NCBI GenBank assembly: GCA_015075635.1
Contig: JABTUA010000002.1
Span: 1,738,708-1,802,707 of the forward strand
Length of the DNA: 64,000 nucleotides
Source of the DNA: Polyangiaceae bacterium
Lineage (GTDB): Bacteria > Myxococcota_A > Polyangia > Polyangiales > Polyangiaceae
Reading direction: 5' to 3'
The notes under the pieces are model-generated. The model had not been told where the DNA came from. It saw only the letters and a list, made by a program, of their open reading frames with translations, and did no database searches. Shown piece after piece: positions 18,062 through 64,000 of this stretch (position 1 is the stretch's first letter; every line of letters begins with the position of its first letter). The translations under genes and the position numbers were made by a program.

Positions 18062-18141
18062 GCGCGCGTTCTAGCAGAGCGAACGGGCGCGCGTCAGCTC
18101 CCGGCAGCGCGCGAAGGTCGCTACGCAGCGTTTGCGCGCTC

Positions 18142-31797: not shown

Positions 31798-33122
<1,325 letters not shown>

Positions 33123-33126
<4 letters not shown>

Positions 33127-33449
33127 GCTGCCCTCCCGGCCAGCGCCTGCTCGAGCTGGGCCACGCTCACGCGAACGCCGCCGCCCGGCAGGCGAACGTG
33201 CGGCAGGCGACCGGCGTCGAGCCAACGGCGCGCGGTGCGCTGCGACACACCGAGGCGCTCGGCGACCTGCGGGAGCGAGAGGTAAACGATCTCGGGCGCG
33301 GGCTGCGGCTTGGCTTCCTCCCGAAGCTCCTGAAGCTCTCGCCGGGTTTCTGCTAGCTCGGTGCGCAGCTCTTCGAGCACGCCGACCAGCGGCTTCTGGG
33401 CCTCGATGATCGCGGCCGCCACGAGATCGGAGAACACATCAGACGCCAT
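33123..33449 (-). CDS. Excisionase/MerR-type HTH DNA-binding protein
   Basis: ATG at 33449. C-terminal LSLPQVAERLGVSQRTARRWLDAGRLPHVRLPGGGVRV matches the excisionase-family HTH. Confidence 0.75.
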
Positions 33450-35222: not shown

Positions 35223-35238
35223 GAGACGAGCGGTCGGT

Positions 35239-37199: not shown

Positions 37200-40100
37200 A
37201 TGGAGGAGGAACCAGAGCAAGCGATGATGCGGAGCGCGGAGACCAGAGACGACCGACGACTCGAGCCCGCGAGGGCCCTACGTGCGGTGGAGCGCGCCGA
37301 ACCGTTCGACGTGCGCCTGCGTTTCGGGTCGGCTGCCGAGGCCTCCCGGTATCTCCGCGCGCTCACGAGTCTGCTCTTTGGCGCGAGCACCAAGGTCACC
37401 GCGACGCTCACCACGGGCGCGCCCCGCGAAGACCTCGCCGCCGAAGAAATCGCGGATCGGCTCGAGCGCGCAGGCATCAACAAGCTCCGCTTCGCGCTCC
37501 AACTCGGCGAGCACGCGATCGCCGTCGAGCTCGCTCTCTTGGGCTCGGAACCGGGTTCCGTCGCTATCCGCGCGCCGTTCACGAGCGGCCCCGCCACCGC
37601 GCGCCTGTGGCTCCAGTCCGACGTCGACGTGGTCGCGCCCATCCCCGCGCTGGCGCTCCCGACCACCGCTGAGGCGCTCGCGCTCGACGCCGCCCACGCG
37701 TTCGTCGGGCTCGCGCTCCGGTGTGGCGGCTTCGAGGAGGCCGAGCTCACCGGCGACCATCCGCTCTCCTGGAACACGACGAAGTCGAACGATGCCGCCC
37801 AGCCGGTCCGCAGCACGCTCCGCGACGCCGTCTGGAGCACCGCAAGCTCGGAGGGAGCCGTCGCCCTGTGGGTAAACGGCCTCGCGCCAGCGTCGAAGCC
37901 GCGCGTACCCGAGGCCGGTTGGTGGGAGCAGTACGACGTGCTCACGCGCACCCCGCGCGAGGCGCTGAACGAGCTGCACTTCCACCTCGCGGCGCACTTC
38001 GACATCCCGTTCGCGTGGGCCATCGTCGACAAGACAGCCGCCCCCGAGGGCACCTTCGTCGTCCCGCCCGAAGCGAGCGCCATCGCGCGTCTCGTGCCCG
38101 AAGCTGACCGCGTCGTCGTCGCCGTCGACCTCGAGCAGCCCGCCTCGCTGGTCGCCGAGATGCTGCTCCACCTCTGCGCGCACCTCACGCTCGGCCACGT
38201 TCGCCCGGGCGATGCGTGCGGCCACTGGGACACGCAGGCCTCGCTTTCGCCGACGCCCCATCGGCAGTGGGACCGCGAAGCGCGCGCCTTCGTCGACGCC
38301 CATTTCGCCCGTCCTGTGCGCCGCGTCTCGTCGCTCGAAGAGTGCAACCCGCGCGAGAAGGCATGGCTCGTGCTCCTCGATCACATCGGGCGCATGGTCG
38401 GCCAGCAGCGCACGCTGCACGCCGCAACGGAGCGTTACCAGGCCGCCGCCTATCAGCGTCAGGCCGCGCAGCGGCTCGTCGCCCAGCTCGAGGAGTATGG
38501 CGGCGCGATGCTCTGCGACGGCGTCGGCCTCGGGAAGACCTACGTCGCCACCACCGTCGCCGTTCACTACGCGAACCAGTGGCGGGAGCAGCTCGCCGAC
38601 ACGAAGCGCTCGGCGACCGACGACCCGTTCCGAATCACGGTGCTTTCGCCGAACTCGGTGGTGAGCACCTGGGTGCGCGAGGCCATCGCGCCTCTCGCTG
38701 CGCACGGCGTTCCGCTCGCCACCATCCGCGTCATCTCGCACTCGAAGCTCTCGCGCATCGTGCCGTCGAGCGACATCCTCACGCGCGGCCGCGCGGGCAT
38801 GAGCGACATGGAGCACCTGCTCCTGTCGGATCTCGTGGTGGTGGACGAGGCGCACAACTTCCGCTCTGTCGGCGCGCGCCGCACCACGGTGCTGCGTGAC
38901 CTCCTGCGCTTGCAGCCGCGCAAGGATCTGCGTCGCAAGGTGCTGCTGCTCACCGCCACGCCCGTGAACAACAGCCTCGAAGACCTGCGCCAGCAGGCGG
39001 CGCTGATGTTCGGCAAGCCGCTCTTCTTCAACGACAACCTCACGCCCGACAAGTACCGCACGCGCGTGTTCAAGGACGTCGAGGAGCGCGTGGCGAAGGC
39101 CACCAAGGGCAAAGGTGCGGCCGACGTCGCGGCGCTGCTCATTCACGGCGACGCCTCGGCGAAGTTTGCCTACGCGCCCGACTTCCGCGACGACGTGCAG
39201 TTCGGCGTGCAAGTGCCGCGCGTGGGCGACTACCTCAGGGAGCAGGAGAAACGGCTCACCGCGCAGCAAGCCGCCGTGCGCGCCGCCATCCAGAGCGGCC
39301 AGCCTCCGGCAGAAGTGCCTGCGCGCATCGCGGGCGAGCTGCTCGACCGCATCGTGGTCCAACGCTCGCGCGCGCTCTGCAAGCAGATCGAGCGCGAGCA
39401 GGGCTCGAACGCGCGGCTCTTGTTCCGGCCCGACGCGGCCACTCCCGAGAAGCTCGTCTACGAGGACGTCTACGACGACACCCGCGACGTGCTCGCGCGC
39501 TTCCTCCCGCTCTTCGAGACCGAGGCCGAGGCCACCGACACGGAGACGCCGCCGCTCTCGCTCAAGATCTACATGTGGGCCGACGTTCGCGACGGCATCC
39601 GCGACGCGGGCGAGGTTTCGTCGGTCGTCGGCCTGCAGCGCGTGCTGGTGCTCAAGCGCCTCGAGTCGTCGCCCGTCGCGTTCCTCATCACCCTGCTCCG
39701 GCTGCTCGCGCTGCATGCGCATCGTCTCAAGCAGCTCGGGGAGCTGTGTCGCGAGGTCGGCGACAAGAAGCGCGAGAAGGCTCTCGCTGCCGAGCTGGCG
39801 GACCTCGTCGACGCGGTGAAGCCCTTGGAGCGTGAGCGCATCGACACGCTGCTTACCGGCGGCAAGGCGAGGGCGCGCGGCAACGATCTGCTCGAGCGGT
39901 GGAGCGGTGCCCACAGCGCGCGTGCTGCCGCCGACAGCGACGACCCGCCGCCGCCCCAGTTCGAGCTGTTCGGACGAGACGACGACAAGTCGTCTGAGCG
40001 CAAGGAGCAGCTCGATCGTCTGTGGAACCTGCGCGAGCACCTCACGCGCGATCTGGCCACGCTGCTCCGCGTAGCGCCCGGCCTCGCCGACATCGTCTTC

Positions 40101-41606
40101 GGTCGCTTCGCGCAGAGCGACTGGCCGCAGCGCTTCATCAATGGCGGTCAGGAGGTCGACTGGCCGAAGTCGGCGGCGTGGGCGATGCGCATCGTCACCG
40201 ACGGCAAGCTGCGCCGCCTGGTGGCGCGCCTGCTGCGCGCGCGGGCCGACGGCCAGAAGGTCATCGTCTTCTCGCAGTTCACCGACACCCTGGCCTACGT
40301 CGACTCGGTGCTGCGAGCGACGCACGCGCTCTCGCGTCAGGAGTGGGCGATCGTCACGGGGCTGCTCGGTGCCGACGTCGGGCGCGCGGTTCGCCATGAC
40401 GACGTGCTCGCCCTCGTAGACCGCAGCGCCGTCGTCAGCGGCGAAACCGAAGATCGCGATGCGGTCATCCACGCCTTCGCGCCGTTCTACCGTCTCGGCC
40501 CGTCGCGCCCGCGCTTGCCCGGCGCTTCGGTCTTCGAACAGCAGCAGCTCGATGCGCTGTGGACCAACGGCTGGACGCAGGCGCTCAAGCAGCCCACCGA
40601 CGTCCTCTTCGCCACTGACGTTCTCGCCGAGGGCGTGAACCTCCAGGACGCCGCGCTGCTCATCAACTTCGACGTCCACTGGAACCCGGTGCGGATGATC
40701 CAGCGCGCGGGCCGCATCGACCGCCGCCTGAACCCCGCCATCGAAGAGGCAACGAGCTTCCCCGACCTCGAAACGCTCGCGCGTGACCTCGGCGTTCCGC
40801 CGCCGCGCTACTGGTGGCACGCGCACGCCGGCGCCGCGCCCGTCACCGTGAACCTGCTCCTGCCCGACGAGCTCGAGGCCGAGCTGCAGCTCCGCGAGCG
40901 CATCGCCAACAAGACGCTCGCCATCGACTTCACCCTCGGCCTCGAACAGGGCACCGGCGCCGAAGCTGACTGGATGGCCGACTACCGCTTCCGGGGCATC
41001 TCGGCCCTCAACGCCTGGCAGGGCGACCGCGCCATCGAGCAGATCGCGGGCTACCAACAACGCCTTCGCCGCCTCATGAGCGAGCGCGGCATCGACGCCG
41101 AGTGGCTCGCCGCGTGGAACGGCTGGCTCCGTGAGGTCGGCGGGCGCCAAGACGACCGCATCCTCGCGTGGGCGCAGCTTGGCCGTAAGGGCGGCGAGAC
41201 CACCGTCTACACGCGGCAGCTCCAACCGCGCCTCGTTGACGGTGTTCCGCACTGGCTGTGGACGACGGCGAAGCCCGCGGACTCGCTGCTCAACTTCTGG
41301 CTCGCACTCGACAGCAAGACCTTCCCGGCGGCGACGCGCACCGGCCTTCCGTTCTCCGAGGACGCCTCGCGCCCCATCGCCGCCTGGGACCTCCTCGCGG
41401 CCTCGCGGCGCCTTGTCGACGAAGACACCGCCCTGGAAGAGCTCGGCGACATGCGCCGCCCCCTCCTGCAAGGTGCGTCGGCCATCTCGGCGGGCTTCCT
41501 TGGCGCGGAGCCCGATCGGCGCGCCATCGCCGTCAGTGGATTTCGACTCCTTCAGCTTCGTGTTCTCGACGAGGCTGCGCCCGTGAGACCGAGTGAGGAA
41601 GCATGA
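37200..41606 (+). CDS. SNF2-family helicase with ~420-aa unknown N-terminal region (DrmD-like / type-ISP motor-like)
   Basis: Motif [13 protein letters not shown], motif [12 protein letters not shown], motif [18 protein letters not shown]-lobe [41 protein letters not shown]. Confidence 0.9.
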
Positions 41607-44600
41607 AGAAGGAAGAGTTCGTTAGCCGCATTCTCGATGGTGTCGCGCCCAAGCCGAAGAAGGCGTCGAAGTCGACTTCGGCCGCTTCGTTCAGCGCAGA
41701 CGATGTCTTCGGCAACGACGACACCACCACGCCCTCGGTTCCGCCGCCCGCCGATACGCGCTTCGCTCAGCTCCTCCTCGAGGAGGTCTTCGCGCACGGT
41801 GAGGCGCAGCCCCGTGACGAGATCGTCCTCGGCGACCAGAGGACCAGCAAGTTCCTGCCGAACGCCGGCATCTACTGGCCGAAGACCAACGAGCGCCCGT
41901 TCCACATCGTGCTCTTCGAGCTCGACAAGAAGGGGCGCGAGCTGCTGGCCGACCCGTTCTTCCGGCAGACCGATCAGCTCGAAGACGCGCTCCACCGCAT
42001 CGTTCAGGACGTCCTCGAGGGCTTCGAGAAGAAGCGCACGGCGTCCGCCCGGCAGGGCGCTCAGACCGAGACCCTCTGCGTCGTCTCCATCGTCGACGAC
42101 CGCGCCTCCTCTGCAGGCCGCCAGATCGTCTGCTTCGGAACCAAGAGCACCACCACCGGCGCCCTCGAGGTGTTCACGCTTCGCGAGGAGGTGCGAGACT
42201 GGGATCGGCCCTTGGCCGAGGAGCACCTCGATCAGCTCTTCAGCCGTCACTTCGAGAAGCTCGCTAGCGGCGCCAAGTGGCAGGACGCCTTCATCACGGG
42301 CGCCGAGCGCAAGAAGATCAAGGACCTCCTCGCGGTCTGCACGCAGGGGAGCCTGCTCGGGATCGCCGAAGAGGAGTTGCGCAAGAAGCTCCGCGACGTG
42401 CTCGACGAGATCGCGGGCTCGTTCGGCATCCACCGCAAGAGCGCGAACCAGAACCGGCGCCTCGACATGATCGAGCTGCCCGTGAACCACGGCATCGGCG
42501 CCGATCCCGTCGAATCGCAGAAGCCAGGCTTCAAGAACCCGCTCCAGGGCGTTCGCATCTACGACCGCAACGAGCGGCTCCTCGGCTTCATCGTGTACGT
42601 CGCCTCGACCAAGGCGAAGGTCGAGCCGCTGCGCGCAGCGCTCGCGAACAACAACCACTTCCACAACGTCCTCGTCATCTACCCCGACAGCGCCGAGCCG
42701 GAGCTGGAGCTCTGGCAGGGCAGCACGCCGCTCCGTGGTCGCCTCACGCGAGGCCCGAAGCGGACTCAGTTCGACGGCGAGGGCGGCGTCGTCCAGCTCC
42801 TCTCGCGCTTCTTCGTCGTCAGCAAGAGCGCCATCGAGAAGCCGAAGCAGCTGGCCACCGAGCTGGCGTGGCGCGCCCAGCATCTGAAGGCGCTGGCCGT
42901 CGAGGAGCTGGAGAAGGAGATCGCGGCGGGCAACGACAGGGGCCCGCTCAAGAAGCTGTTCGACACCTTCAACGCCGCGCTCGCCACGCTCACCGTCGAG
43001 AAGTTCGCCGACGCCTACGCGCAGACGATCACCTACGGCATGTTGGCCGCGCGCTGGATCTCGAGCGACGACGAGAACAAGCCGCTCTTCACGCGCAAGA
43101 ACTTGAAGGACCTGCTCCCCGAGACGAGCGCGTTCTTGAAGGACCTGTTCGACAAGCTGGTCAACAACTCCAACTTCGACAAGAACCTGACCTGGCTTCT
43201 CGACGACATCACCAGCTTGCTCGCGCGCACCTCGGTCAAAGAGGTATTCCAGGACGAGAAGCGCGACCCGTCGATCCACTTCTACGAGGACTTCCTCGAC
43301 GCCTACGACCCGCAGGTACGCAAGGACCAGGGCGTCTACTACACGCCCGACGAGGTGGTCTCGTACATCGTGCGGACCGCGCACGCCTCGCTCCAGAATG
43401 ACTTCGGTCTCCCGCTCGGTCTCGCCGACACGACGGCGTGGGCCGCCTTCGCCAAGGCGAAGAAGCTGTCGGTGCCCGAGGGCGTCGACCCGAAGGCGCC
43501 CTTCGTCCAGGTGCTCGACCCGGCGCTCGGAACGGGCACCTTTATCCTGCGCGTCATCGAGGTCATCCACGAGACGATGCAGGCCGAGTTCAAGAAGCAG
43601 GGGCTCGACGAGGAGGCCGCGCGCAAGGCGTGGGTCAGCTACGTCCGCAAGGACCTCTTGCCGCGCATCAACGGCTTCGAGCTGATGATGGCGCCCTACA
43701 TCGTGAGCCACCTGCGCCTCGGACTCGCGCTGCAGGAGACCGGCTTCACGTTCACGAAGAACGATCGCCTACGTGTGTTCCTCACCAACTCGCTCGAGCC
43801 GCACACGGCAGCTCAGCTCTCATTCATAGGAGAACACGTCGCGGAGGAGGCGAAGGAGGCAGAGCGTGCCAAGAAATCCATCCGCGTCACTGTCGTGGTG
43901 GGCAACCCGCCTTACGCCGGTCACTCGCAGAACAACGGCGAATGGGCGCGAGGCCTTGTCGAGCCGTACCGGAGTATCGGCGGCAAGGCGCTACGCCTCG
44001 CTCAAGGAAAGTGGCTCCAGAACGACTACGTGAAGTTCATCGCGTACGCAGAACGCAGACTTGCTGCGACTGGGTTCGGAGTGCTTGGGTTCATAACCGA
44101 CCACAGCTACTTGGATGGCGACACGTTCCCGGGCCTGAGGCATCACCTCCTGACCACCTTTTCGAACGTGGACGTGCTGAACCTCCACGGGAATCTCGCC
44201 CGCCGCGAAGCTCCCCCCGATGGCGGGGCTGACGACAACGTTTTCAACATCATGCAAGGCGTTGCGATCTTGTGCGCGCGGCGCACTCCGGACGCTGCTG
44301 CCGATGGGTTGGCCACCTTCCGAACCGCTGACTTGTGGGGTGCGCGTGGACCGAAGCTGCAGCGGCTTCGCGCAGCCTTCGAGGGCGTTGCGCCCATCGT
44401 CTGGCTCACCGACGTCCAGCACGATGACCGTTTCCTCTTTCTCGCGACTCGTACGGGCACGGATGCGAGTGTCGAGTTCGCGCAGTTTGATGCCATCGAC
44501 GCGGTGTTCTCCCCCAATGGCAGACCTGCGCCTGGCTTCCTGACCACGCACGACGACTTCGCGATCGCATTCACCCGAGAAGAAATCTCTGACCATGTAA

Positions 44601-45625
44601 CCACGCTGCTCGCCACGAAATCCGAGGCGGACGCGCGCGACCAGTTCAAGCTCTGCACGCAGTCGCAGTGGCAGTACGCCAACGCCAAGAAGGTCCTGGC
44701 TACCGGCGGATGGCGAAAGCAGTTGGTGTCGTGCCTGTACCGTCCCTTCGATGAGCGATGGACGGTCTATGACCCGAGCGTCCTTGTTCATCGCCGAGAG
44801 CGCGTGAACGCCCATCTCCTGGATCCGGGAAACGTCGCCCTCCTCACGACGCGAATGACCAAGGGAGACGACTTCAACCACGTCTTCTTGTCCGACCAGA
44901 TCACAGAGGTCATCAGCCTTTCGTCGAAGACCTCGGCCAACGCGTTCGTGTTCCCGCTGTTCCTCCGCGATCCCGACGGACTCGTGAAGCGCAACCAGCC
45001 CAACATCGACCGCCACGTGGTGGCTGCGTACACCGACATCGCGGGGAAGGCGGCCACGCCCATGGCGATGTTCGAGTACTGGTACGCCGTACTCTCCAGT
45101 CCATCCTACAGACGGCGGTACAACGATCTCCTCATCCGAGAGTTCCCTCGCGTGCCTCGCCCCTCGTCGGCTGAGGTGTTCAAGGCGCTTGGCGAGCACG
45201 GGAAGCGCCTCGTCGAACTGCACCTGCTGAAGACGTCGCCGAAATCGCTCGGGCCCGATGAGGGACTCCAGGGAAAAGGGGACGGAGTCGTCGCGCCTGG
45301 GATGCCGAAGTTCGACGCTAAGGAAGGAAAACTCTGGATCAACACGAAGCAGTGGTTCGGAGGAGTCTCCGCTGCTGTCTGGGGATTCAAGATCGGCAGC
45401 TACGAGGTCTGCAAGAAGTGGCTCTCCGCCCGGCGTGGACGCGCTCTCTCAACTGACGAGTCCCGGAGGTTCGCGCTGGTGCTCAACGCTCTCCGAGAAA
45501 CGATCGAGGAGCAGAGCAAGATCGATCGCACCATCGAGACGTGCGGCGGGTGGCCGGATGCCTTCCGCCTGGTCGGAGGTGCGGCGGCAGCCGCGAGCGT
45601 GCCCCCCGAGGAAGACGATGAGTAA
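41603..45625 (+). CDS. N6-adenine DNA methyltransferase, gamma-class, with type-ISP-like C-terminal specificity region
   Basis: [14 protein letters not shown], motif [14 protein letters not shown], motif [12 protein letters not shown]. The C-terminal [25 protein letters not shown] resembles the type ISP/IIG C-terminal domain. ATGA overlap with the helicase gene. Confidence 0.88.
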
Positions 45626-47546
45626 TGCCCGCTTCTGGTTCGTCCCCCTGAAGGACATCGCGCCCGCCGAGCAGCAAGCCCAGCTCGCCGCGAAGGAGGA
45701 CGTGCGCGCGAGCGACCTGCCCGCGTCGTTCAACGTCCCGTCAAAGCTCCATCAAGAGGGCATTCGCGCGGGCCACGTGCTCGCTCTGCACGACGGCGAC
45801 ACCGTAACGGCGCTCGCGCGCGTGCTGGCGCTAGACAGTGCGAGCTCGCTGCACTGGCGACGCCTACCGATGCTGGAGGCGCCGGAGCTGTCGGCGACGC
45901 CGGAGCTGCGCGAGGTCACAAGCACGGAGGCCCAGCAGTTCAAGGTCGGCATCGACGCCGTCCTTCGCGACGTGCCCGCGAGCAGCGTCGCGACGGCGAC
46001 GCCAACCACCACGGCCGCCTCTGGCGCGCGCTACTGGAAGGTCGCTCCCGGTCGAAACGGCATCGCGTGGCCCGAGTGGCGACAGCGAGGCATCGCGGCC
46101 ATCGGCTGGCCCGACCTCGGCGACATCTCCACGCTCGCCGAGGCTGACTTCCAAGCGCTCTCCAAGGCCAAGTACAACAAGAGCAAGCGCAGCGAGGGGC
46201 CGTACCAGGTGTGGCTGTTCCGCGCGATTCAGCCCGGGGACCGCGTCATCGCCAACAACGGGAGGACGTCGATCCTCGGCGTCGGCACCGTCACCGAGGG
46301 CTACCGGTATCGGCCCGGCGAGCACACCGTCGAGGGCGAGGACTTCCCGCACCAGATCAAGGTGAAGTGGGACGACACCACCGCGCGCGACATCGAGGAC
46401 CAGGCAGACTGGACGCGCACGCTGCGCGAGCTGCCGCAGGAGAAGTTCGAGACGCTCGTCGGCGGTAGCGGAGCCGTCCCGTTCTCGGTCACCGACCCGA
46501 GCAACATCATCCTCTACGGCCCGCCCGGCACCGGGAAGACGTACAACGTGCGAAGGCGCGCCCTCGAGCTGCTGGGCGACGCGACCGCCACCGACGCACC
46601 GAACGATCATGTGCAAGCCGAGTGGGAGCGGCTGCGCCAGGCGGGGCAGATCGTCTTCTGCACGTTCCACCAGGCCTTCGCCTACGAGGAGTTCGTCGAA
46701 GGCCTGCGCGCCATCACCGACGAAGAAGGCGACGTCCACTACCGAGTCGAGCCCGGCATCTTCAAGCGCATCGCCGCCACGGCGGCGCAGCAACGGAAGG
46801 CCGCCTTCGTCCTCGTTATCGATGAGATCAACCGCGCCAATATCGCGCGCGTCTTCGGCGAGCTGATCACGCTGCTCGAACCCGACAAGCGGCTCGGCAA
46901 CCCGAACGAACTGCGCGTGCAGCTCCCGTCGTCGAAGGAGTGGTTCGGCGTGCCGCCGAACCTGCACGTCGTCGGCACCATGAACACCGCCGACCGCTCC
47001 ATCGCGCTGATGGACGTCGCGCTGCGCCGCCGGTTCACCTTCGAGGAGATGATGCCCGACGCCGACGCGCTGAGCGATGCGCTCGCCGAGGCGAACGTCG
47101 ACGAGGCGTTGCGCACGCTTGTCGTCGCGGTGTTCACGAAGCTCAACGAGCGCCTGCGCTACCTCTACGACCGCGAGCACCAGATCGGGCACGCCTACTT
47201 CTTCGGCGTGCGCTCGTTCGATGGTCTGCGTGCCGTCTTCGCCGACTGCATCCTCCCGCTGCTTCAGGAGTACTTCTACGGCCAGTGGGACAAGGTCGCA
47301 CTCGCACTCGGCTACCCGATCAAGGCCGACGGCACGCCGAAGGAGGTGCGCGGCACCGAGCACGGCAGCGGCACCTTCCTCACGACGCAGAAGCTCGACG
47401 AGAAGACCGTGCTGGGCTTCGACCACGACGAGTACGTCGACCAGGTCGCGTGGGACGTGCATCCGGCCTTCCGCCCGCGCGGCAAGGCTGGCGATACGTG
47501 GCTGAAGCAGGCCTTCGAAGAGCTGGTTAGAGCCAAGGGGACCTGA
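45618..47546 (+). CDS. mcrB: McrB-family AAA+ GTPase with two-part N-terminal reader-like region
   Basis: ILYGPPGTGKTY, FHQAFAYEEFVEG, VLVIDEINRANIARVFGELITLLE, VVGTMNTADRSIALMDVALRRRF. 8-nt overlap with the MTase gene. Confidence 0.9.
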   Translation: MSNARFWFVPLKDIAPAEQQAQLAAKEDVRASDLPASFNVPSKLHQEGIRAGHVLALHDGDTVTALARVLALDSASSLHWRRLPMLEAPELSATPELREVTSTEAQQFKVGIDAVLRDVPASSVATATPTTTAASGARYWKVAPGRNGIAWPEWRQRGIAAIGWPDLGDISTLAEADFQALSKAKYNKSKRSEGPYQVWLFRAIQPGDRVIANNGRTSILGVGTVTEGYRYRPGEHTVEGEDFPHQIKVKWDDTTARDIEDQADWTRTLRELPQEKFETLVGGSGAVPFSVTDPSNIILYGPPGTGKTYNVRRRALELLGDATATDAPNDHVQAEWERLRQAGQIVFCTFHQAFAYEEFVEGLRAITDEEGDVHYRVEPGIFKRIAATAAQQRKAAFVLVIDEINRANIARVFGELITLLEPDKRLGNPNELRVQLPSSKEWFGVPPNLHVVGTMNTADRSIALMDVALRRRFTFEEMMPDADALSDALAEANVDEALRTLVVAVFTKLNERLRYLYDREHQIGHAYFFGVRSFDGLRAVFADCILPLLQEYFYGQWDKVALALGYPIKADGTPKEVRGTEHGSGTFLTTQKLDEKTVLGFDHDEYVDQVAWDVHPAFRPRGKAGDTWLKQAFEELVRAKGT

Positions 47547-48934
47547 TGCTGCGCGTGACTGTCCTCGAGCGTGGCCGCATCGTGCGGTCTGACTCCGACG
47601 CCGACAGCGTCGAGCTTGGGACACCTTCGCGCCGCGTGCTGCCCCAGCGCCTGTACGACCGGCTCTATCGCAGCGAGGGCGCTCGCGAAGACCGAGGCGA
47701 GGCGGCGGTGTTTCGCTGGCGGCGTAACCACTGCTTCGTCGGCCCCTGGGTTGGTGTGATGCAGATCCCCGGTTTGCAGCTCGAGATCTTGCCGAAGACC
47801 GACGAGGGCGCGGCGCAGGACAGCGACCAGGATGTCCGCGACATCCGAAGCAACCTGATGGAGATGCTGCTGCGCGGGGGGCTCGGAGCGGTGCGCGCGC
47901 GCGGCATCGCCGACCTCGCCCTCAAGCGCGGCAACCTTCACGATCAGCTCGTCGCCGCCTTCCTCGAGCGCACGCTGTTCGAGCTGCGGCGTGGGCTCGA
48001 TCGCGGCTACGCCACCGAGGAAGACAACCTCGCGACGCTGCGAGGCAAGCTCGTGCTCTCGCGGCACGTGGCGCTGAACGCCGCGCAGAAGGCCCGCTTC
48101 TACTGCCGGCACGACGTGCTCACCGAGGCCACGCAGATCTCCGTGCGGCTCAAGCAGGCGTGCCGCGTGCTCGCCGGCCGCGTGCTGCCCGTGACCGTAC
48201 TGGTGAAGTGCCATCAGGTGCTCGCGCTGCTCGACGACGTGCCCGACCTGCCGTTCCGCCACCGCGAGCCCGACCCGGTGTTCACGCGCCAGAACGAGCG
48301 CTTCGCCGACATCTACGGCTTCGCCTGCATGCTGCTCGAAGGCCAGGCGCCCGACGCGCGCAGCGGCGAGGTCGAGACCTTCTCCCTGCTGTTCGACATG
48401 GAGCAGGTGTTCGAGCGCTACATCGCCGCATTCCTCGCCTCCGAGGTCATGTACCGCTTTGCCGACGCGAGCCTGTTTCCGCAGGCGAAGGGGCAGCGTC
48501 ACAACCTCTACCTCGACGGGCAGGAGAAGGTGCTGCGCATGGCGCCCGACCTCGTATTCGTTCACGAGACGGCGGGTATCGAAGAAGCCAAGACGAAGAC
48601 GCTGATCATCGACACGAAGTGGAAGCGCCTCTCCGAAGAGGATGGCGGTCGCCCGAGCCGATCGGACCTCTACCAGCTCTACGCCTACCTGCACCGCTAC
48701 GACTGCCAGCGCGCGCACCTGCTCTATCCGAAGGCGGCGGGCATCCAGACGCGCGACCTCAATGCACGAGGGCGCAACGACTCGGACGCGGGCACGGTGG
48801 GCGTGCGCTTCGTCGACCTGAACCGGAAGCTCTGGACGCGCGAAGGCAAGACGGCGTTGGCCGACGAGCTCGCGGTCATCGTCCGTGAAGGTCTCGACCT
48901 CGCAGCGGCGGCGCCCGTGGAGGCCACGGCATGA
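47546..48934 (+). CDS. mcrC: McrC-family PD-(D/E)xK nuclease subunit
   Basis: APDLVFVHE...LIIDTKWKRL...DLYQLYAYL. TGATG overlap with mcrB. Confidence 0.85.
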   Translation: MLRVTVLERGRIVRSDSDADSVELGTPSRRVLPQRLYDRLYRSEGAREDRGEAAVFRWRRNHCFVGPWVGVMQIPGLQLEILPKTDEGAAQDSDQDVRDIRSNLMEMLLRGGLGAVRARGIADLALKRGNLHDQLVAAFLERTLFELRRGLDRGYATEEDNLATLRGKLVLSRHVALNAAQKARFYCRHDVLTEATQISVRLKQACRVLAGRVLPVTVLVKCHQVLALLDDVPDLPFRHREPDPVFTRQNERFADIYGFACMLLEGQAPDARSGEVETFSLLFDMEQVFERYIAAFLASEVMYRFADASLFPQAKGQRHNLYLDGQEKVLRMAPDLVFVHETAGIEEAKTKTLIIDTKWKRLSEEDGGRPSRSDLYQLYAYLHRYDCQRAHLLYPKAAGIQTRDLNARGRNDSDAGTVGVRFVDLNRKLWTREGKTALADELAVIVREGLDLAAAAPVEATA

Positions 48935-54500: not shown

Positions 54501-56048
54501 CTCGTCTGCCTCGACGTCGCTGCGGGCGGCCTCCAGCTCGAGATCGGTCCGCTCGATGGTCTCCCGCCCTTCGTGAAGAAGCTCCGCGTCCTCGGCACCG
54601 AGTGGGATGCCTTCGTGTTGGCGACGAACGCGAAGTTGCGCCCAACGCGGGTGTCTGTGCGGCCCGGAACCGGTCCGTGGCAGTGGGAGGCCGTGGGCTT
54701 CGAAGACGAGCAAGACCTCGGCCTCGACCAGCTCGCGCTCGGCGCGCTCGACGTCACGACGCCGCGCGTGTTCCGCGTCGACACAGAGGGCGTGGGCCAG
54801 CTCGTCACGAGCACCACCCTCTCCCTCGGGCAGTCCTATCGGCTGCTGCTTCCGCCGAACGTCGGTGGGGAGGTCGGCACGGCGCTGGCTGACGGGTGGA
54901 GGATCTGGACGCTCGACCTGCCGGCGCAGCTCTCGCCGTCGACGGGCGACGCACTGAAGGCCATCGGCGTTGACGTGGGCGAAGCATCGCCGCGCCTCGA
55001 GTGGGCCCTGGCCCCTGCTTCAGCGTGGCGCACCAACGCGCGTGGCGACAGCTATCCGGTGTTCGACGAGGGGATGGAGCTCCTCGTGAACCTGAACGCC
55101 GTCGCCCTCGAGGACGGCGACGAGGCCATGCTGTCCCTCCACGGCCCCGCAGGCACGGAACGCCTGGCTCTCTCGACGAGCGGGCTCGTCTCCCTGGGCA
55201 AACCCGCGGCGGGACGGTGGGCCTGCGCGCTGCTGCATTCGCGGACCAACGTGCAGACCGCGACGCTGGTCTTCGAGGTCGCGCGGAGCGTCACCGAGTA
55301 CGTCAGCGCGGCGTGGACGACGGGCGTGCCGCACGGATTGGCGTCGCTCGAAGCGACCGCCCCGCCTGGGTGGCCCGTCTCCGTGCGCTGGGGTGGGCTC
55401 GCCGCACACGAGGAGACGATCGCGACGGTCTACGGCAACGACGACCGGACCGTGTCCTTCGAGGATGTCCATCCACTCCTCGAGGCCCGTGCCGCACGAG
55501 CATCCGTCGCTGACCTCGTCGTCGACTTCCGCGAGCTGGGTCGCCGTCTGGTCCCTCTCGAGGGCCGCGCCTCGCTGGAGGAAATCCGCGCGCAGCTCAT
55601 CGCTCTCTGGCAACAGCGCTCCGAGCTCGTGCAGAGCCGCAAGGGCATGTGGTTGCAGCTCATGCCCACGTGGTTCGAGCCGACGACGACACGCCTTGGC
55701 TATGGCGTCGAATCGCTCGCCATACCCGACGGCGCAGATGCGCCGCACGACCTCGCCGCGTACCTGCTCACCATCGACGAGCGGACGAACGGAAGCATCA
55801 CGCGGTCGCCGTCGCGTCTCCTCGTGCTCACGACCGACGTCGACAGCGTGCTCCGCGACCTGCGCGAGTGGATCGACAGCGCCTGCGCGGCAGCGAGGGT
55901 GCGCGACGCGATCGTCACCGACGGCACCCGGTGGGCGACGCACCGCAAAGGCGACCGCCAACTCCGGCGGCGCGAGTGGTCGTTCGACCGCGCAATCAAT
56001 CTCGGCAGCGTGGACGACATGCTGAACGACCTCACGGAGGGTTTGTGA
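51525..56048 (+). CDS. GHKL (Bergerat-fold, sacsin/MORC-like) ATPase, 1507 aa, with acidic linker and shared C-terminal module
   Basis: N-box FIFELLQNAEDAL and G-box SIGRFGIGFKSVYTF. Asp/Glu/Ala-rich linker at about 54040-54290. The C-terminal ~553 aa are paralogous to the previous protein. TGATG overlap. Confidence 0.85.
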   Translation: MAPSNYAAISDENRTRYGTDIGIVGPMLLADRYDDRTHFIFELLQNAEDALGRRSDARGPRSVTFTLSPWRLKLSHFGRPFDEADVRGVCGIAQSTKDQHSIGRFGIGFKSVYTFTDCPEIHSGEEDFAVENYVQPKAVAPSARVAGETQIILPLKLGDSSAEQEIANGFQRLGPGALLFLRHIDEINWNIEGGASGVYMRSAPEALAENVHRIKVIGQETGKPEVDQNWLVFHRDVSSNAAEKVGRVEIAFSLMPSNDEPGRWAVQQLVASHLVVFFPTVVSTNLGFLVQGPYRTTPSRDNVQRNDPWNQQLVQETADLLVEAVRWLRDNGMLDASALRCLPTDRAKFPEGAMFTPLFEAVREAFLEEALLPRNDGGHVTAAQARLARTQELRELFSAGQLEELFDAEDCAWLTGDITQDRAPELRRYLLQELQVPELTPDKIVVKLDKAFLEAQSDEWLTRLYAFLSAQKAIAGLFSGLPLVRLDDGTHVVARENGKSNAFLPSDIETSFPTVRHAVCGSPEARSFLVSLGLTAPDPVDDVVWNVLPKYPAPAVEGDDNAYAADIERIRVAFNTDSKAQRDKLVSALRETSFVMVVDAGDGEGYVASPGKVYIATDRLKALFAGVSDVLVVDDNYECLRGEAVRELLEACGALRYLRPVPTPNALSPEARRELRRQTGHEQLGQYEDVTDWELLGIEALLALLPTLSQEQRAERARLLWESLGDLEERRGRGVFEGSYTWTHYGQRKAPPFPAAFLRRLAKAAWVPDASGDLVRPALVTFESLSWKANPFLLSKIAFKPPIIDQLAKEAGIEPAALDLLRKLGITSVADLARIGIANKPPPSPPDEAATDNDETADEGAEAQAAEVDEASDDADDALSVANAAASEDNDASDLTVADADEPAGSDTNDESPEAEPTGPHANGARGPRSTSGQHRPHGAARPGQRNITGQAGLDEQAKRLRRRVASFFEGATSDADDEDTTASSSVAWQTKLVCLDVAAGGLQLEIGPLDGLPPFVKKLRVLGTEWDAFVLATNAKLRPTRVSVRPGTGPWQWEAVGFEDEQDLGLDQLALGALDVTTPRVFRVDTEGVGQLVTSTTLSLGQSYRLLLPPNVGGEVGTALADGWRIWTLDLPAQLSPSTGDALKAIGVDVGEASPRLEWALAPASAWRTNARGDSYPVFDEGMELLVNLNAVALEDGDEAMLSLHGPAGTERLALSTSGLVSLGKPAAGRWACALLHSRTNVQTATLVFEVARSVTEYVSAAWTTGVPHGLASLEATAPPGWPVSVRWGGLAAHEETIATVYGNDDRTVSFEDVHPLLEARAARASVADLVVDFRELGRRLVPLEGRASLEEIRAQLIALWQQRSELVQSRKGMWLQLMPTWFEPTTTRLGYGVESLAIPDGADAPHDLAAYLLTIDERTNGSITRSPSRLLVLTTDVDSVLRDLREWIDSACAAARVRDAIVTDGTRWATHRKGDRQLRRREWSFDRAINLGSVDDMLNDLTEGL

Positions 56049-57031
56049 TGACGCTCTCGCATGTCACTCGCGAAGAGGCAGTGAAGCGGCTCGCTGAGAG
56101 GCAAGCCGGTGCCCCAGACTCCATCGAAGCGCTGTGCGATTTCCTGCGCGCCGAGGTTCACGCCCGGAAGCACGCGCCGCGCGCGGCGACGCTTTCGCGC
56201 GTCGCACGACTGCTCGCGCCCGCCATCACGCTCGATGAGCAGCGCCTCGACGAGGTGTGCGACGCGCTCGAGCGCGAGGGTGACGTGATGCTCAACCCGG
56301 GCGGCATCCTCTACGCAACGCCGACCCGCGTGGTTGCCACTGAGACGAGTGCTCGTACCTTCAGCAGCGTGCCGACGCGCGCGCTTGCGAAGGCGCTCGG
56401 ACGCGACATCTCCGCGAAGGGCGCCTCGCGCACAATCACCTCGGTGGAAGGGCTCACCGAAGCCGTCGCCAAGGTGAGCGGCGTGATGGTCCCACCCGCA
56501 GCGTGGGCCGGGCTCGACCGCTCGCCGAACGCCGACGCGGCCTTCCTTGGGAAGCTCGACCAGAGGCTCGAATGGCAGGCGCTCGGCGCAGGCTCGCTTG
56601 AGAAGGACGGGGCGCTCGAATGGCGTGCCTGGCATGTCACGCCGGAAGGGGCGCGGTGGCGGCGCAGCAACGAAGGCCAACTCTGGTGGGCGCGTACGCG
56701 CTTCGGCAGCCACCATCGCGCGTGGACGACGAGCGCGTCTCCGGCGACGAGCCCGTTCGTCGCGCTGAGCCCCGACGACGCCGACCGCGCCCGCTTCGCG
56801 CTCTCGCGCGAGATCGCTGCGGCTTCGGTCCTGCGTGTCGAGCGAGCCGGCAAGCGCGTGACTATCGAGGTTCCCGGTTGGCTGCCGCGCCCCGAGTACC
56901 GCTGGCTCTCGCTGCACGCGGTGGCCGTTGCGGAGAGCAAGGGCATGCGCTGGGAGACCTCGACGGATAGCGAAGACCAGATCACGAAGCTGCTGGCCGA
57001 GCGTCTCGGTCTCGTCGTGGAGGCCACGTGA
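56048..57031 (+). CDS. Hypothetical protein (327 aa)
   Basis: The ATG at 56048 overlaps the previous stop (TGATG). GC3-biased. No family recognised. Confidence 0.7.
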   Translation: MTLSHVTREEAVKRLAERQAGAPDSIEALCDFLRAEVHARKHAPRAATLSRVARLLAPAITLDEQRLDEVCDALEREGDVMLNPGGILYATPTRVVATETSARTFSSVPTRALAKALGRDISAKGASRTITSVEGLTEAVAKVSGVMVPPAAWAGLDRSPNADAAFLGKLDQRLEWQALGAGSLEKDGALEWRAWHVTPEGARWRRSNEGQLWWARTRFGSHHRAWTTSASPATSPFVALSPDDADRARFALSREIAAASVLRVERAGKRVTIEVPGWLPRPEYRWLSLHAVAVAESKGMRWETSTDSEDQITKLLAERLGLVVEAT

Positions 57032-59094
57032 CGCGACGACAGCTCACCATCAAACCGAGCTGCATGCGGGAGATCGCGACGTTCCCTTCGGACCGCGCCG
57101 CGCTGCTCTGGGACAAGATCGACGCGCTCGTCTCCGACCCACTCCCCGATGGGAAGGTGAAGAAGAAGCTCAAGGGCGCCGACGGCGTCTACCGCATGCG
57201 CGTGACGGACCACCGCGTGTTCTATCGCTTCGGCGAGGACTGGCTCAGCCTGCTCGGCATCCGGCGGCGCGCCGAAGACACCTACGACGGCGTGCCCGAC
57301 GAGACCGCCGGCGCCCAAGCGCCCGACGACGGCGACGAAAACCTCGATGCGCTCATCGCAGCCGCGCAGCCGAAGGTCTTCCAGCTCAAGACGACCGCGC
57401 CCGAGACAACGCTGCCCGAGCCCATCACGCAGGAGCTGCTGCGCGAGCTCGGCGTGCCCGTCGCGGTGGTGCCGACTCTGTTGCACTGCAAGACGGAAGA
57501 AGCGTTGCTCGAAGCCCCCGTGCCTCCCGACGTTCTCAGTCGCGTCGTCGACCGCCTCTTCCCGCCGACCATCGAACGGCTCGACGAGCAGCCCGATCTC
57601 GTCGTCGCGTCCACGAAGGACCTGGTTCGTTTCAAGGAGGGCGACCTCCTCGGCTTCCTGCTGCGGCTCGACGAGGACCAGCTCAAGCTGACCCAGTGGG
57701 CGATGAAGGGACCCACGCTTGTTCGTGGCGGTGCAGGTACGGGCAAGAGCACCGTCGCCCTCTACCGCGTGAAGGCCCTCCTCGAACGGCCCGGCGCGAC
57801 AGGCGCCGAGCGCGTGCTGTTCACGACCTACACGCGCTCGCTGCTCACCGTAACGCAGCAGCTCCTCGAACAGCTCCTCACGCCCGCCCAGCTTCGCCGT
57901 GTCGATGTCGCGACGTGCGACCAGGTTGCATGGCGCATCGTCGGCAAGGCTCGCAAGGTCGGCCAGCTCGAATCCGACAACGACGCGCTCAAGCGCCTGG
58001 CCAAGCTCCGGGCGACGCACGCGCCCGGCGGCTCCGACTTCGAAGCGAAGCTGCGTGCGCGGGCGCTGGAGCGCCTGACGGACGCGTGGCTGCTCGAAGA
58101 GTTCGAGTGGATCATCGAGGGACGCGGCCTGACGAGCCTCACCGAGTACCAGGCGGCGGCGCGTCCGGGTCGAGGGCTGCCGCTCAACGAGCGTGCTCGC
58201 GCGGCTGTTTGGGAACTGTACGAGGCGTTCAGCAGGGGCGCGGGCGAACGCTACCCGGCGCTGCGCTGCGAGGCGCTGAAGCTGCTCGCCGAAGACGCCA
58301 AGGCGGTCCGCTACGACTACGTGGTCGTCGATGAGGCGCAGGACCTGAGCCCCGTCTCGCTCGCGCTGATGGCCGAGGTCTGCAAGACCGCCGAGGGCCT
58401 GTTCTTCGCCGCCGACAACAAGCAGTCGCTCTACTCGCGCAACTACACGTGGAGCTCGGCGCACCCGCGCCTCCAGTTCCGAGGGCGCACGGCGCTGCTC
58501 TCTCGCAACTACCGCTCGACGCGTGAGATCGACCGCGCCGCGTTCTCGGTGCTCGTGCCCGGTGAGGACGAGGAGCTGGTGGCCTCGAATAGCGTCCACG
58601 AAGGGCCGCTTCCGGTGCTGGTACGTGGCATCGCCGCCGACAAGCAGGCCGAGTGGATGGCACGCTTCGTCCGGCAAATGGCGCGTCACCTTCACCTGAA
58701 GGCGAGCACCGCCGCCGTGCTCGTACCCGTGGCTGCCGCAGGCGAAACGCTGGCCACCGAGCTTCAGGCGCAGGGCGTCCCGGCTCGCTTCTTCCCTGGC
58801 CGCGATCTCGACCTCAAGGCCGACGTCGTGCGCGTGTTGACGCTGCACGCGGCCAAGGGCCTGGAGTTTCCCATCGTCATCGTCGCTGGCCTCGACAGCG
58901 GCAACTGGCCCGTGCCCGAGGACTTCGAAGAACCGGACCTCTTCGCTGAGCGCGCACGCCACGAGCGGCGTGTGCTCTACGTCGGGCTCACCCGCGCGAT
59001 GCGCGGCTTGATGCTGATTTCTCCACAAGGATGTCGGCATCCCGCCGTCGTCGATCTCGACCTCAACCACTGGCACGTGGAGAGCGCCCCATGA
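57028..59094 (+). CDS. RelE/ParE-like N-domain fused to UvrD/Rep-type SF1 helicase
   Basis: N-terminus KKLKGADGVYRMRVTDHRVFYRFGEDWLSLLGIRRRAEDTY. Helicase motifs GGAGTGKSTVALY, YDYVVVDEAQDLSP, RNYRSTREI, LTLHAAKGLEFPIVIV, VLYVGLTRAMRGL. Confidence 0.88.
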   Translation: MTRRQLTIKPSCMREIATFPSDRAALLWDKIDALVSDPLPDGKVKKKLKGADGVYRMRVTDHRVFYRFGEDWLSLLGIRRRAEDTYDGVPDETAGAQAPDDGDENLDALIAAAQPKVFQLKTTAPETTLPEPITQELLRELGVPVAVVPTLLHCKTEEALLEAPVPPDVLSRVVDRLFPPTIERLDEQPDLVVASTKDLVRFKEGDLLGFLLRLDEDQLKLTQWAMKGPTLVRGGAGTGKSTVALYRVKALLERPGATGAERVLFTTYTRSLLTVTQQLLEQLLTPAQLRRVDVATCDQVAWRIVGKARKVGQLESDNDALKRLAKLRATHAPGGSDFEAKLRARALERLTDAWLLEEFEWIIEGRGLTSLTEYQAAARPGRGLPLNERARAAVWELYEAFSRGAGERYPALRCEALKLLAEDAKAVRYDYVVVDEAQDLSPVSLALMAEVCKTAEGLFFAADNKQSLYSRNYTWSSAHPRLQFRGRTALLSRNYRSTREIDRAAFSVLVPGEDEELVASNSVHEGPLPVLVRGIAADKQAEWMARFVRQMARHLHLKASTAAVLVPVAAAGETLATELQAQGVPARFFPGRDLDLKADVVRVLTLHAAKGLEFPIVIVAGLDSGNWPVPEDFEEPDLFAERARHERRVLYVGLTRAMRGLMLISPQGCRHPAVVDLDLNHWHVESAP

Positions 59095-64000: not shown

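Follow-up and report, generated by a model that had tools for sequence, protein, structure and literature searches.

A horizontally mobile ten-gene operon in a Polyangiaceae bacterium: a candidate defence cassette with ARMADA-like and Druantia type I-like components

We analysed a block of ten overlapping genes, here called g1 to g10, which starts at position 37200 on the + strand of a 64,000-nucleotide (nt) stretch of a Polyangiaceae bacterium genome (GenBank assembly GCA_015075635.1, contig JABTUA010000002.1, positions 1,738,708 to 1,802,707; this whole stretch is referred to as the window) and runs on past its end. The block probably constitutes a single horizontally mobile and co-transcribed anti-phage or anti-plasmid operon, composed of a seven-gene core (g1, g2, g5, g7, g8, g9 and g10) and two variable slots, slot A after g2 and slot B after g5, which hold passenger modules. 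What can be read directly from the loci compared here is which genes and domains the cassette contains, that its catalytic motifs are intact, how the operon is built, that gene order is conserved, and that the cassette is modular and has spread horizontally; in our view it is a hybrid between ARMADA and Druantia type I which carries embedded passenger modules.

Operon structure and conserved gene order

Translation of the open reading frames (ORFs) of g1 to g9 from position 37200 to the end of the window is uninterrupted, with no internal stop codons, and gives proteins of 1468, 1340, 642, 462, 864, 1507, 327 and 688 amino acids (aa) for g1 to g8, respectively, and more than 1636 aa for the part of g9 inside the window. 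At each of the eight internal junctions the adjoining genes overlap, by 1-8 nt (ATGA at 41603/41606 for g1/g2, 8 nt at 45618/45625 for g2/g3, TGATG at 47546 for g3/g4, ATGA at 48931/48934 for g4/g5, TGATG at 51525 for g5/g6 and at 56048 for g6/g7, GTGA at 57028/57031 for g7/g8, and ATGA at 59091/59094 for g8/g9), and ORF translation and coordinates reproduced each of them exactly as listed in the original prediction, which had been made from the letters of the window without database searches. A Shine-Dalgarno-like GGAGG/GAGGAAG motif lies 6-13 nt upstream of every internal start, within the preceding gene. The predicted unit of nine genes and at least 26.8 kb stood as a unit but not in its count: on the source contig (locus L001, where the window coordinate equals the L001 coordinate + 47027) g9 encodes 1937 aa with its stop at window-equivalent 64904, and is followed with a 4-nt overlap by a tenth gene, g10 (385 aa, PDDEXK_1, window-equivalent 64901-66058), so that the total is ten genes and about 28.9 kb, with g10 and the terminator located past the window. 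The coding strand switches 3' of g10, and a scan of 20 kb revealed a single strong intrinsic terminator, which is found at 66105-66124, 47 nt 3' of the g10 stop codon, with an 8-bp stem containing seven GC pairs followed by GTTTTTT (T6). Promoter-like and terminator-like sites within the block did not exceed shuffle expectation, which is weak evidence in a genome with 68% guanine and cytosine (GC). A reading of the high GC content as a sign of Actinobacteria was rejected, as the annotations of the source, a Myxococcota metagenome-assembled genome, name Polyangiaceae/Myxococcales. The terminator is bidirectional and common to a convergent gene for a small dual-specificity or protein tyrosine phosphatase (PTP)-like phosphatase (PTP-SAK, L001 19078-19514, equivalent to window 66105-66541).

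Two of the start codons deserve comment. Translation of g1 probably starts at 37224 and not at 37200, as GGAGGAGG is located directly upstream and the homologues have 1460-1463 aa, and g1 would then encode 1460 aa. For g3, the start at 45618 is the choice of the gene callers, with one annotation beginning 20 codons earlier.

The conservation of the cassette was assessed in 18 loci from GTDB species representatives (found with a g5 alignment), 28 metagenome loci (found with a g7 alignment) and extra contexts obtained by exact-protein look-up, onto which all ten proteins were mapped by tblastn. The cassette is rare, with matches in 18/185,579 species representatives for the patterns used, and the carriers belong to the Myxococcota, the Beta-, Gamma- and Alphaproteobacteria, the Acidobacteriota and the Chloroflexota (Ardenticatenia), together with an Olavius symbiont. 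The order g1-g2-[slot A]-g5-[slot B]-g7-g8-g9-g10 was the same in the 18 genome loci, in six extra contexts and in 15 of the 28 metagenome loci, these 15 being every one long enough to span the neighbouring genes, and it was kept down to 26-48% identity of g5 and g7. The genes also overlap or abut at the corresponding junctions of homologous loci with 66-92% identity, and gaps do not exceed about 25 nt in loci with 35-50% identity. No locus with sufficient flanking sequence had g5 to g10 and lacked g2 (and g1) upstream of them. A single unit is thus borne out as against a loose defence island, with genes that are co-oriented and translationally coupled and a synteny which is kept across phyla. 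As regards the proposed search of other genomes for co-occurrence, the genes for the S24-like protein (g5) and the helicase with DUF1998 (g9) co-occur in a fixed order, and the GHKL gene (g6) is optional.

The block is, however, not the fixed nine-gene system that had been envisaged, as the McrBC genes (g3 and g4) and the GHKL gene sit in slots of variable content, many loci lacking them or having other genes in their place, and the pair of SNF2 ATPase and methyltransferase genes stands alone in Archangium. The core consists of the seven genes g1, g2, g5, g7, g8, g9 and g10, with slots A and B varying around them. Proteins of the cassette are 84-92% identical between Polyangiaceae, Xenophilus, Rhodanobacter and Ramlibacter, exceed 85% identity across Myxococcota and several proteobacterial classes, and reach 72-89% in the Chloroflexota copy where genes are intact. 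This cross-phylum identity, the island with a tRNA-Thr gene and an integrase in the Polyangiaceae genome, and the conjugative element carrying the Xenophilus copy show that the cassette has spread horizontally. Because sequence identity is this high between such distant carriers, the cassette may well work in very different hosts. Such portability is relevant to mobile-element ecology and puts tests in a heterologous host within reach.

Signs of decay were seen in some copies. An insertion sequence (DDE_Tnp_1) splits g8 in Xenophilus (L003/L007 19299-20159), g1 is fragmented (1-2108) and g9 is gapped (18048-18223) in the Ardenticatenia metagenome-assembled genome (MAG; L004), and g6 has a frameshift at about 15655 in a deltaproteobacterial MAG (L021).

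Proteins of the core and of the two slots

The domains recognised in the original prediction, i.e. SNF2, adenine methyltransferase with Type_ISP_C, McrBC, the DruE-like giant, the S24 and GHKL proteins with their additional parts, and RelE-UvrD, were all found again, with the S24 domain graded further below. The first core gene, g1 (37200..41606, + strand), encodes a SNF2-family ATPase of 1468 aa (probably 1460; Pfam SNF2-rel_dom and Helicase_C) with a DEAH motif at residue 549 and 530 aa inserted between its two helicase lobes. Its similarity to DrmD, HmaA, BrxH and ArmA is weak and confined to motifs: it scores 79.5 bits against the DrmD equivalog with its cut-off of 610, and aligns with Escherichia coli ArmA over the helicase motifs alone (E=1e-5), being 500 aa longer and having an unrelated N-terminal domain. 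Neither a Pfam match above chance nor a PDB profile match was obtained for this 410-aa N-terminal domain, which contains an invariant His-rich motif, LLHLC[AG]Hx[ETAV]LGH[VI]RPGDxxxHWDT, at residues 320-346 (window 38160-38240); a peptidase call for this motif, which looks like a degenerate HExxH, was rejected as the Glu is not conserved. We regard g1 as an ArmA/DrmD-like core component.

The second core gene, g2 (41603..45625, + strand), encodes a gamma-class N6-adenine DNA methyltransferase of 1340 aa (Pfam Type_ISP_C 8e-63, N6_Mtase and Eco57I) with NPPY at residue 768, which matches the PADLOC model REase_MTase_IIG at 4e-173 and PglX weakly at 0.0027. There was no BLASTP match between g2 and E. 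coli ArmB at E<0.1, and Type_ISP_C is present in g2 and absent from E. coli ArmB. Searches of family libraries and PDB profiles found no nuclease domain in g1 or g2. The identity of g2 ranges from 37% to 94% among cassettes with other proteins 83-97% identical, and in comparison with five loci (L008, L010, L015, L016 and L022) the whole of g2 (41603-45625) and the N-terminus of McrB (45618-46800) have been exchanged, with 37-60% identity. This is the pattern expected of specificity modules under diversifying exchange, and suggests recombinational switching of specificity. The protein g2 has a Type ISP-like target-recognition domain and is the likely specificity determinant. In Archangium lansingense (L033 9792-18363) a g1-g2 pair is found on its own, with g1 84% identical and a small HTH_17 gene 5' of it; none of the other eight cassette genes is located within 6 kb downstream or 10 kb upstream in this locus.

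Slot A directly follows the methyltransferase gene and contains McrBC in most loci. In the window these are g3 (45618..47546, + strand), encoding a 642-aa McrB AAA+ GTPase (Pfam AAA_5, NCBIfam McrB 2.5e-36) with intact Walker A (GPPGTGKT), Walker B (VLVIDE) and NTAD signature (NxxD) motifs and a variable N-terminal DNA-binding region, and g4 (47546..48934, + strand), encoding a 462-aa McrC (Pfam McrBC 3e-58, NCBIfam McrC 4e-20) with a PD..DTK (PD..DxK) nuclease motif. Together they match the canonical McrB and McrC pair of Type IV restriction, in which McrC combines DUF2357 with a PD-(D/E)xK nuclease. In one metagenome locus (L036, 18306-22016) McrBC is replaced by a second g2-like methyltransferase, and two further loci (L061/L062) contain an AAA_15/AAA_21 ATPase, a 189-aa protein and a winged helix-turn-helix fragment at this position (L061 4578-7264). 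It is clear from these replacements that the position after the methyltransferase is a defined slot for passenger modules.

The 864-aa core protein g5 (48931..51525, + strand) has a helical N-terminus, an S24/LexA-like domain, an array of beta-sandwiches and an alpha/beta C-terminal domain. Its best-conserved stretch in homologues down to 36% identity is formed by residues 135-290, which contain the motifs 'HLPLHSLKAAAAS-PAGEWG', 'EGHSMDDG.SGL.DG', 'YAVKKYVAD', 'LVSLNPDK.RYPDI.L' and 'ITVVAKVV'. This series matches the cleavage loop, the GxSM serine, the VK[RK] lysine and the closing strands of LexA/UmuD-type S24 proteins, with 'EGHSMDDG' (S191), 'AVKKY' (K237) and 'LPLHSLKAAAAS-P' invariant across 36-92% identity, and with Ala-Ser in place of the Ala-Gly of LexA in the LexA-like 'LPL..AAAS-P' loop; in addition, the Xenophilus homologue is labelled 'S24 family peptidase' in one UniRef record. 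Other results limit this assignment: the first family-library scans of g5 gave no significant match, a re-scan of the sub-region reached Pfam Peptidase_S24 at E=0.0024 and 18 bits, under the cut-off of 23.3, the PDB sequence, alignment-profile and S24 sub-region searches returned nothing relevant to S24, an hhalign comparison of the g5 profile with E. coli LexA gave no match, and the AlphaFold2 (AF2) model is poor in the S24 region. The conserved motif series makes the S24 assignment likely but unproven.

The AF2 model of g5 is confident for residues 345-864, which are modelled as three or four Ig-like beta-sandwich domains (about 345-660) followed by an alpha/beta domain (665-864), and a Foldseek search returned generic tandem beta-sandwich arrays alone, with low template modelling (TM) scores. 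By hhalign a segment of about 160 columns within the beta-sandwiches matched a 955-aa protein of a Nitrosococcus Druantia type I locus with a probability of 91-93%, so that g5, one of the four genes which could not be placed originally, is now partly placed. BLAST and hhalign found no relationship of g5 with DruA, the Pseudomonas putida and Ralstonia DruB, DruC, McrB or McrC, the hhalign probability for DruA being below 1%.

Slot B is occupied in the window by g6 (51525..56048, + strand), a 1507-aa accessory gene product with an N-terminal sacsin/GHKL ATPase and a g5-type C-terminal module. Residues 32-778 align to positions 71-850 of the 1486 in the TmtA model (PADLOC, 1.5e-57), and further support comes from Pfam SACS, NCBIfam P_loop_sacsin, a PDB match to sacsin and an ELLQNAED N-box. 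Residues 934-1507 of g6 are 66% identical to residues 294-864 of g5 (BLASTP), hence the two proteins share a module of 575 aa. The gene is confined to the clade close to the window and missing from at least 15 loci (the g6-less loci being L004, L005, L011, L017-L020, L023, L024, L044, L058 and L061-L067), and is an optional paralogue of g5 as regards its C-terminal module.

Two of the genes considered unplaceable in the original prediction have found relatives. The 327-aa core protein g7 (56048..57031, + strand) is a remote homologue of DruD, as its profile aligns with that of Druantia type I DruD over 248 columns with an hhalign probability of 96% (E=4.4e-9), whereas the controls (DruA, DruB, DruC and McrC) remained below 1%. 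BLAST and hhalign likewise showed no link between g7 and McrB. No direct match was obtained for g7 in family libraries or by PDB sequence searches, and no enzymatic motif was evident. Its AF2 model has an alpha/beta fold with a pLDDT score (predicted local distance difference test) of 70, and Foldseek gave no match at E<=0.001, the best one being a FACT double pleckstrin homology (PH) domain at 5e-3; going by this model the fold is possibly tandem PH-like. The core protein g8 (57028..59094, + strand; 688 aa) has the architecture of ArmD, with a RelE/ParE-like domain (ParE_toxin 2.5e-4) and a UvrD/GajB-like superfamily 1 helicase (Pfam UvrD domains, PADLOC GajB 1e-28; motifs GTGKS and DEAQD), and is 29% identical to E. 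coli ArmD (E=7e-39).

The largest core protein, g9 (59091..64904 in window-equivalent coordinates, + strand), is a YprA-family DEAH helicase of the DruE1 type with 1937 aa, many CxxC zinc modules and an MZB/DUF1998 Cys4 cluster (Pfam MZB), and inspection of its 130-aa C-terminal tail for motifs revealed no evident nuclease or catalytic motif. It scored 1368 bits with the PADLOC DruE1 model and 613 with the next type; with the DruE1 model, canonical Druantia-I DruE scored 2332, E. coli type III DruE 571 and the ARMADA protein ArmC 324. Direct comparison gave 880 bits with Druantia-I DruE and about 250 bits with E. coli ArmC, and g9 is 35% identical over 93% of its length to the Druantia-I DruE of P. 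putida. Its best plasmid homologues (33-35% identity, 93% of the length) are DruE proteins in operons starting with DruA. The last core gene, g10 (+ strand), encodes a Cas4/AddB-like (RecB/Cas4-family) PD-(D/E)xK nuclease (Pfam PDDEXK_1 2e-22, cas4 6e-8) with the motifs D188...D201-x-K203 and QxxxY and the cluster C30...C282xxC285x5C291. On a Meiothermus plasmid (L028 17478-18482) an unannotated g10-like ORF (PD-(D/E)xK, E=1e-9) follows the DruE gene of a disrupted Druantia-I-like locus, and the pairing of a helicase with a Cas4-like nuclease is therefore not unique to the cassette.

Known systems, proposed mechanism and alternative explanations

The expectation that the block would not resolve into complete named systems was confirmed in a PADLOC run, with no DruA-C, DruH, DrmC or split DrmA/B. 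Of the known systems, ARMADA type II resembles the cassette in having a SNF2 protein, a methyltransferase, a YprA helicase and a RelE-UvrD protein, in the 'strict' order ArmA-ArmB-ArmC-ArmD; types I and II were defined in a preprint by Bell et al. 2025 (PMC12458937). ArmA to ArmD are each required, and defence is direct and non-abortive (PMC12458937, and a study of the enterohaemorrhagic E. coli (EHEC) island OI-172, PMC13463889). All four component types are present in the cassette, g8 has the RelE-like plus GajB-like UvrD architecture of ArmD, and both systems are found on mobile elements. However, the cassette deviates from the strict A-B-C-D order with A-B-[slot]-g5-(g6)-g7-D-C-nuclease, g9 falls outside the ArmC clade by its bit scores and is DruE1-like instead, and g2, with its Type ISP target-recognition domain, lacks BLAST similarity to ArmB. 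Furthermore, ArmC has an active C-terminal Vsr nuclease, whereas g9 has no obvious one and is followed by the separate Cas4-like g10, and ARMADA has nothing that corresponds to the core proteins g5 and g7.

Druantia type I reportedly consists of DruA-B-C-D-E, as described by Doron et al. in 2018. It has been termed 'Type IV CoCoNuT', with Druantia I and II considered CoCoNuT-related (Bell et al. 2025, PMC12458937). The likeness to this system lies in the DruE1-type g9, the DruD homologue g7, the beta-sandwich segment of g5, which matches the protein at the DruB/C position of the Nitrosococcus variant, and the g10-like nuclease after DruE in Meiothermus. The differences are that none of the ten proteins matches DruA/DUF4338, that BLAST and hhalign found no homologue of the P. 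putida or Ralstonia DruB or DruC, that the RelE-UvrD gene sits between the DruD-like and DruE-like genes, and that the cassette has SNF2 and methyltransferase genes upstream, both of which Druantia I lacks. The variant on plasmid pNWAT01 of Nitrosococcus watsonii (L026 8019-10886), in which a single 955-aa protein without Pfam match replaces DruB and DruC and has a beta-sandwich segment of about 165 aa in common with g5, may be the closest link between Druantia I and the cassette. The idea that DruB and DruC are inactivated McrB-like proteins was tested against the McrB of the cassette, and found no support. Type III DruE is a helicase-nuclease which acts on intermediates containing single-stranded DNA (ssDNA); in the Druantia literature searched, the mechanistic work concerned type III (DruH-DruE), and nothing was found on the roles of DruA-D. 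Since the cassette keeps DruD and DruE and swaps DruA-C for a methyltransferase/SNF2 pair, a candidate S24-type switch and a Cas4-like nuclease, it offers a more interpretable relative for learning what DruD and DruE need.

A related arrangement has been noted before. The accessible text of Bell et al. 2024 (eLife, PMC11090510) mentions a 'DISARM-like' cassette of YprA, DUF1998, SWI2/SNF2 and PglX genes, often accompanied by canonical McrBC. It assigns this cassette to the green clade of its McrB tree and confines itself to a single sentence and the legend of a figure, deferring to a 'forthcoming publication'. The cassette described here likewise has a McrB with NxxD and a McrC in one orientation with SWI2/SNF2, PglX-like methyltransferase and YprA/DUF1998 genes, and probably represents the same locus class. 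The accessible Bell text gives no description of g5, g6, g7 (the DruD link), the RelE-UvrD protein, the Cas4-like nuclease or the slots, and the accessible literature is equally silent on the S24 protein, the module common to g5 and g6, the DruD link, the nuclease and the slots. The original statement that no described system has this gene set or order consequently needs qualifying, with ARMADA (2025) and the McrBC-linked 'DISARM-like cassette' (2024) both published: the general kind (ARMADA/Druantia-like and McrBC-associated) has already been reported, and a description of the exact architecture was not found in the accessible parts of these sources.

The remaining systems are more distant. 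DISARM class 1 (DrmD, DrmMI, DrmA, DrmB and DrmC) also combines a SNF2 protein and an adenine methyltransferase with a helicase, DUF1998 and a nuclease in this order, and g1 has weak DrmD matches, but the helicase and DUF1998 are fused in g9 and split into DrmA and DrmB in DISARM, the nuclease g10 is of the PD-(D/E)xK type while DrmC is a phospholipase D (PLD) protein, with no PLD domain in the cassette, and all DISARM models scored far under their curated cut-offs. The gamma-class methyltransferase with Type_ISP_C and the adjoining superfamily 2 ATPase have the look of a split single-chain Type ISP enzyme (LlaGI/LlaBIII); here the ATPase is a separate SNF2 protein of 1468 aa and the pair is embedded in a larger operon, and the Mrr-like nuclease of the single polypeptide was not detected in g1 or g2. 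Finally, the N-terminal part of g6 is similar to the N-terminal half of the Tiamat protein TmtA, including the sacsin-type GHKL N-box (the TmtA models are part of PADLOC-DB, a library which covers both known and candidate defence systems), whereas its C-terminal 575 aa are the g5-type module, full-length TmtA has about 1300-1800 aa, and TmtA is a single-gene system and g6 an optional gene of an operon.

Taking these relatives together, we infer a function in defence, formation of a complex, an order of events and an S24-dependent trigger along the following lines. The methyltransferase g2 would mark host DNA as self by methylation at a specific adenine motif, and the SNF2 translocase g1 would interrogate DNA together with g2, in analogy to ARMADA, DISARM class 1 and Type ISP, with the swapping of the whole g2 gene altering specificity. 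Invader DNA sensed by g1/g2 as unmethylated would be handed to g9 or expose a substrate for it; g9 would load on unmarked or ssDNA-containing invader DNA, and g10 would degrade the strands unwound by g9. The effector block of g7 and g9 may have been derived from Druantia type I and extended by g8 and g10, with g8 as an ArmD-like auxiliary helicase and possible RNase, while g7, along with the C-terminal module that g5 and g6 have in common, could serve as the adaptors or scaffolds which hold the complex. The S24 domain of g5, if active, would form a LexA-like self-cleaving switch, triggered by damage or by ssDNA/RecA, which licenses the effector. McrBC in slot A is expected to restrict, independently, DNA with modified cytosines that escapes the methylation-based system, and g6 in slot B would use the same docking module to add a GHKL ATPase of the Tiamat type. 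A bolder version holds that the cassette represents a distinct, unnamed class of YprA-helicase defence which links ARMADA to Druantia I, with the g5 S24 autoprotease as a sensor of DNA damage or RecA-ssDNA that permits a helicase of the DruD/DruE type and a Cas4-like nuclease to act, with a 575-aa docking module which takes either S24 or GHKL heads, and with a slot after the methyltransferase that captures passenger systems; we offer this as a tentative proposal which is rather unlikely to hold.

The single-operon reading is tempered by several of the results. A scan for the sigma-70 consensus in a myxobacterial genome of 68% GC leaves room for internal promoters, and as g1 and g2 are distant relatives of E. 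coli ArmA and ArmB, carrying ARMADA behaviour over to the cassette is an analogy. No nuclease domain was found in g1 and no catalytic motif in the g9 tail, which makes the division of labour with g10 a proposal. Some modules may function, or at the least persist, on their own, since g1-g2 is found alone in Archangium and McrBC can be replaced. These last observations lead to the main rival explanation, which we consider unlikely on balance yet deserving of serious attention: a compacted island, in which three or four systems that each suffice on their own (a split Type ISP-like restriction-modification system, McrBC, a Tiamat-like gene and a Druantia-like helicase-nuclease) are lined up head to tail on a mobile element, and are co-transferred and co-expressed with no interaction, be it physical or functional. 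Besides the solitary g1-g2 pair with its 84% identical g1, this explanation draws on the exchange of McrBC for a second methyltransferase or an AAA_15 ATPase module, on the optional nature of g6, on the autonomy of McrBC elsewhere, which is established knowledge, and on the superoperons of independent restriction systems described by Bell et al. It sits poorly, however, with g5-g7-g8-g9-g10 never occurring without g2 (and g1) upstream where the flank suffices, and with no nuclease having been found in g1 or g2 that would complete a restriction enzyme; the 575-aa module common to g5 and g6 suggests a common docking partner, and in ARMADA II the SNF2, methyltransferase, YprA and UvrD proteins are all needed together, both of which favour an integrated operon.

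An already named system, either ARMADA type I or II or Druantia type I, could also have been missed by older annotation models and have received McrBC by chance insertion. The presence of all four ARMADA II component types, the 1368 bits of g9 on the DruE1 model and the DruD homologue g7 are compatible with this, and the Bell et al. Table S1, in the part examined, has entries for 'ARMADA Type I helicases' from genomes of Corallococcus and Polyangiaceae. The deviation from the strict A-B-C-D order, the far greater closeness of g9 to Druantia-I DruE than to ArmC, the missing DruA, DruB and DruC, and the Type_ISP_C domain, which is found in g2 and not in E. coli ArmB, nevertheless make it improbable. 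The accessions of the cassette were also absent from the examined part of Table S1 of Bell et al. 2025, which is weak evidence, and from the accessible Bell et al. 2024 supplements. Very improbable, in our view, is a primary role outside defence, as a maintenance, exclusion or DNA-processing module of an integrative or conjugative element, for instance in entry exclusion or as a RelE-like/methyltransferase addiction module. The cassette is always located on mobile elements, and a RelE/ParE-like domain combined with a methyltransferase could create post-segregational dependence, but the nearest characterised relatives of most of the genes are phage-defence systems, and swapping of specificity domains is typical of restriction systems.

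As a mobile operon with a conserved core, the cassette suggests that modularity at set positions is possible in defence operons of very large size, here through a passenger slot and through a duplicated docking module with different N-terminal heads, and this modularity makes hypotheses on the assembly of composite immune systems and the sharing of effectors directly testable. Its interest is a specialist one, residing in the bridge between ARMADA and Druantia I, the duplicated docking module, the candidate LexA-like switch and the defined passenger slot, for which the key mechanistic steps are ones that we infer.

The genomic island and neighbouring genes

Upstream of the operon, a tRNA-Thr(CGT) gene was identified with ARAGORN at 31798..31872 (+ strand), which is the likely integration site and left boundary of an island. 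It abuts an ORF for a tyrosine recombinase/integrase at 31804..33438 (- strand; ORF limits, the true start being probably internal) with XerC/XerD-type NCBIfam matches of 1e-6, under the curated cut-offs. Downstream of the tRNA-Thr gene the GC content falls from about 0.71 to 0.64-0.69, and since the drop starts at the position where the tRNA-Thr gene and the integrase ORF adjoin, the operon is considered cargo of an integrated island. No attR repeat of the 3' end of the tRNA-Thr gene was found up to window-equivalent 69094, about 5 kb past the window.

Three genes are divergent from g1 (window 33954-36947, - strand) and encode a 422-aa protein, a DUF5131 protein (35239-36006; Pfam DUF5131 1e-105, with a weak match to 'radical SAM mobile pair protein A') and the three-Cys-motif partner protein TcmP (36006 to about 36947; TIGR04474 2e-62). 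This trio was not kept 5' of g1 in the other loci compared and is outside the conserved cassette. A gene for a WYL regulator (HTH_11-WYL-WCX, BrxR/CapW-like), absent from the window copy, lies directly 5' of g1 and co-directional with it in Xenophilus (L032 8893-9873), where the cassette is inside a conjugative element with a Trb type IV secretion system and ParAB/KorB, and an alphaproteobacterial copy adjoins an integrase and an HTH_17 gene.

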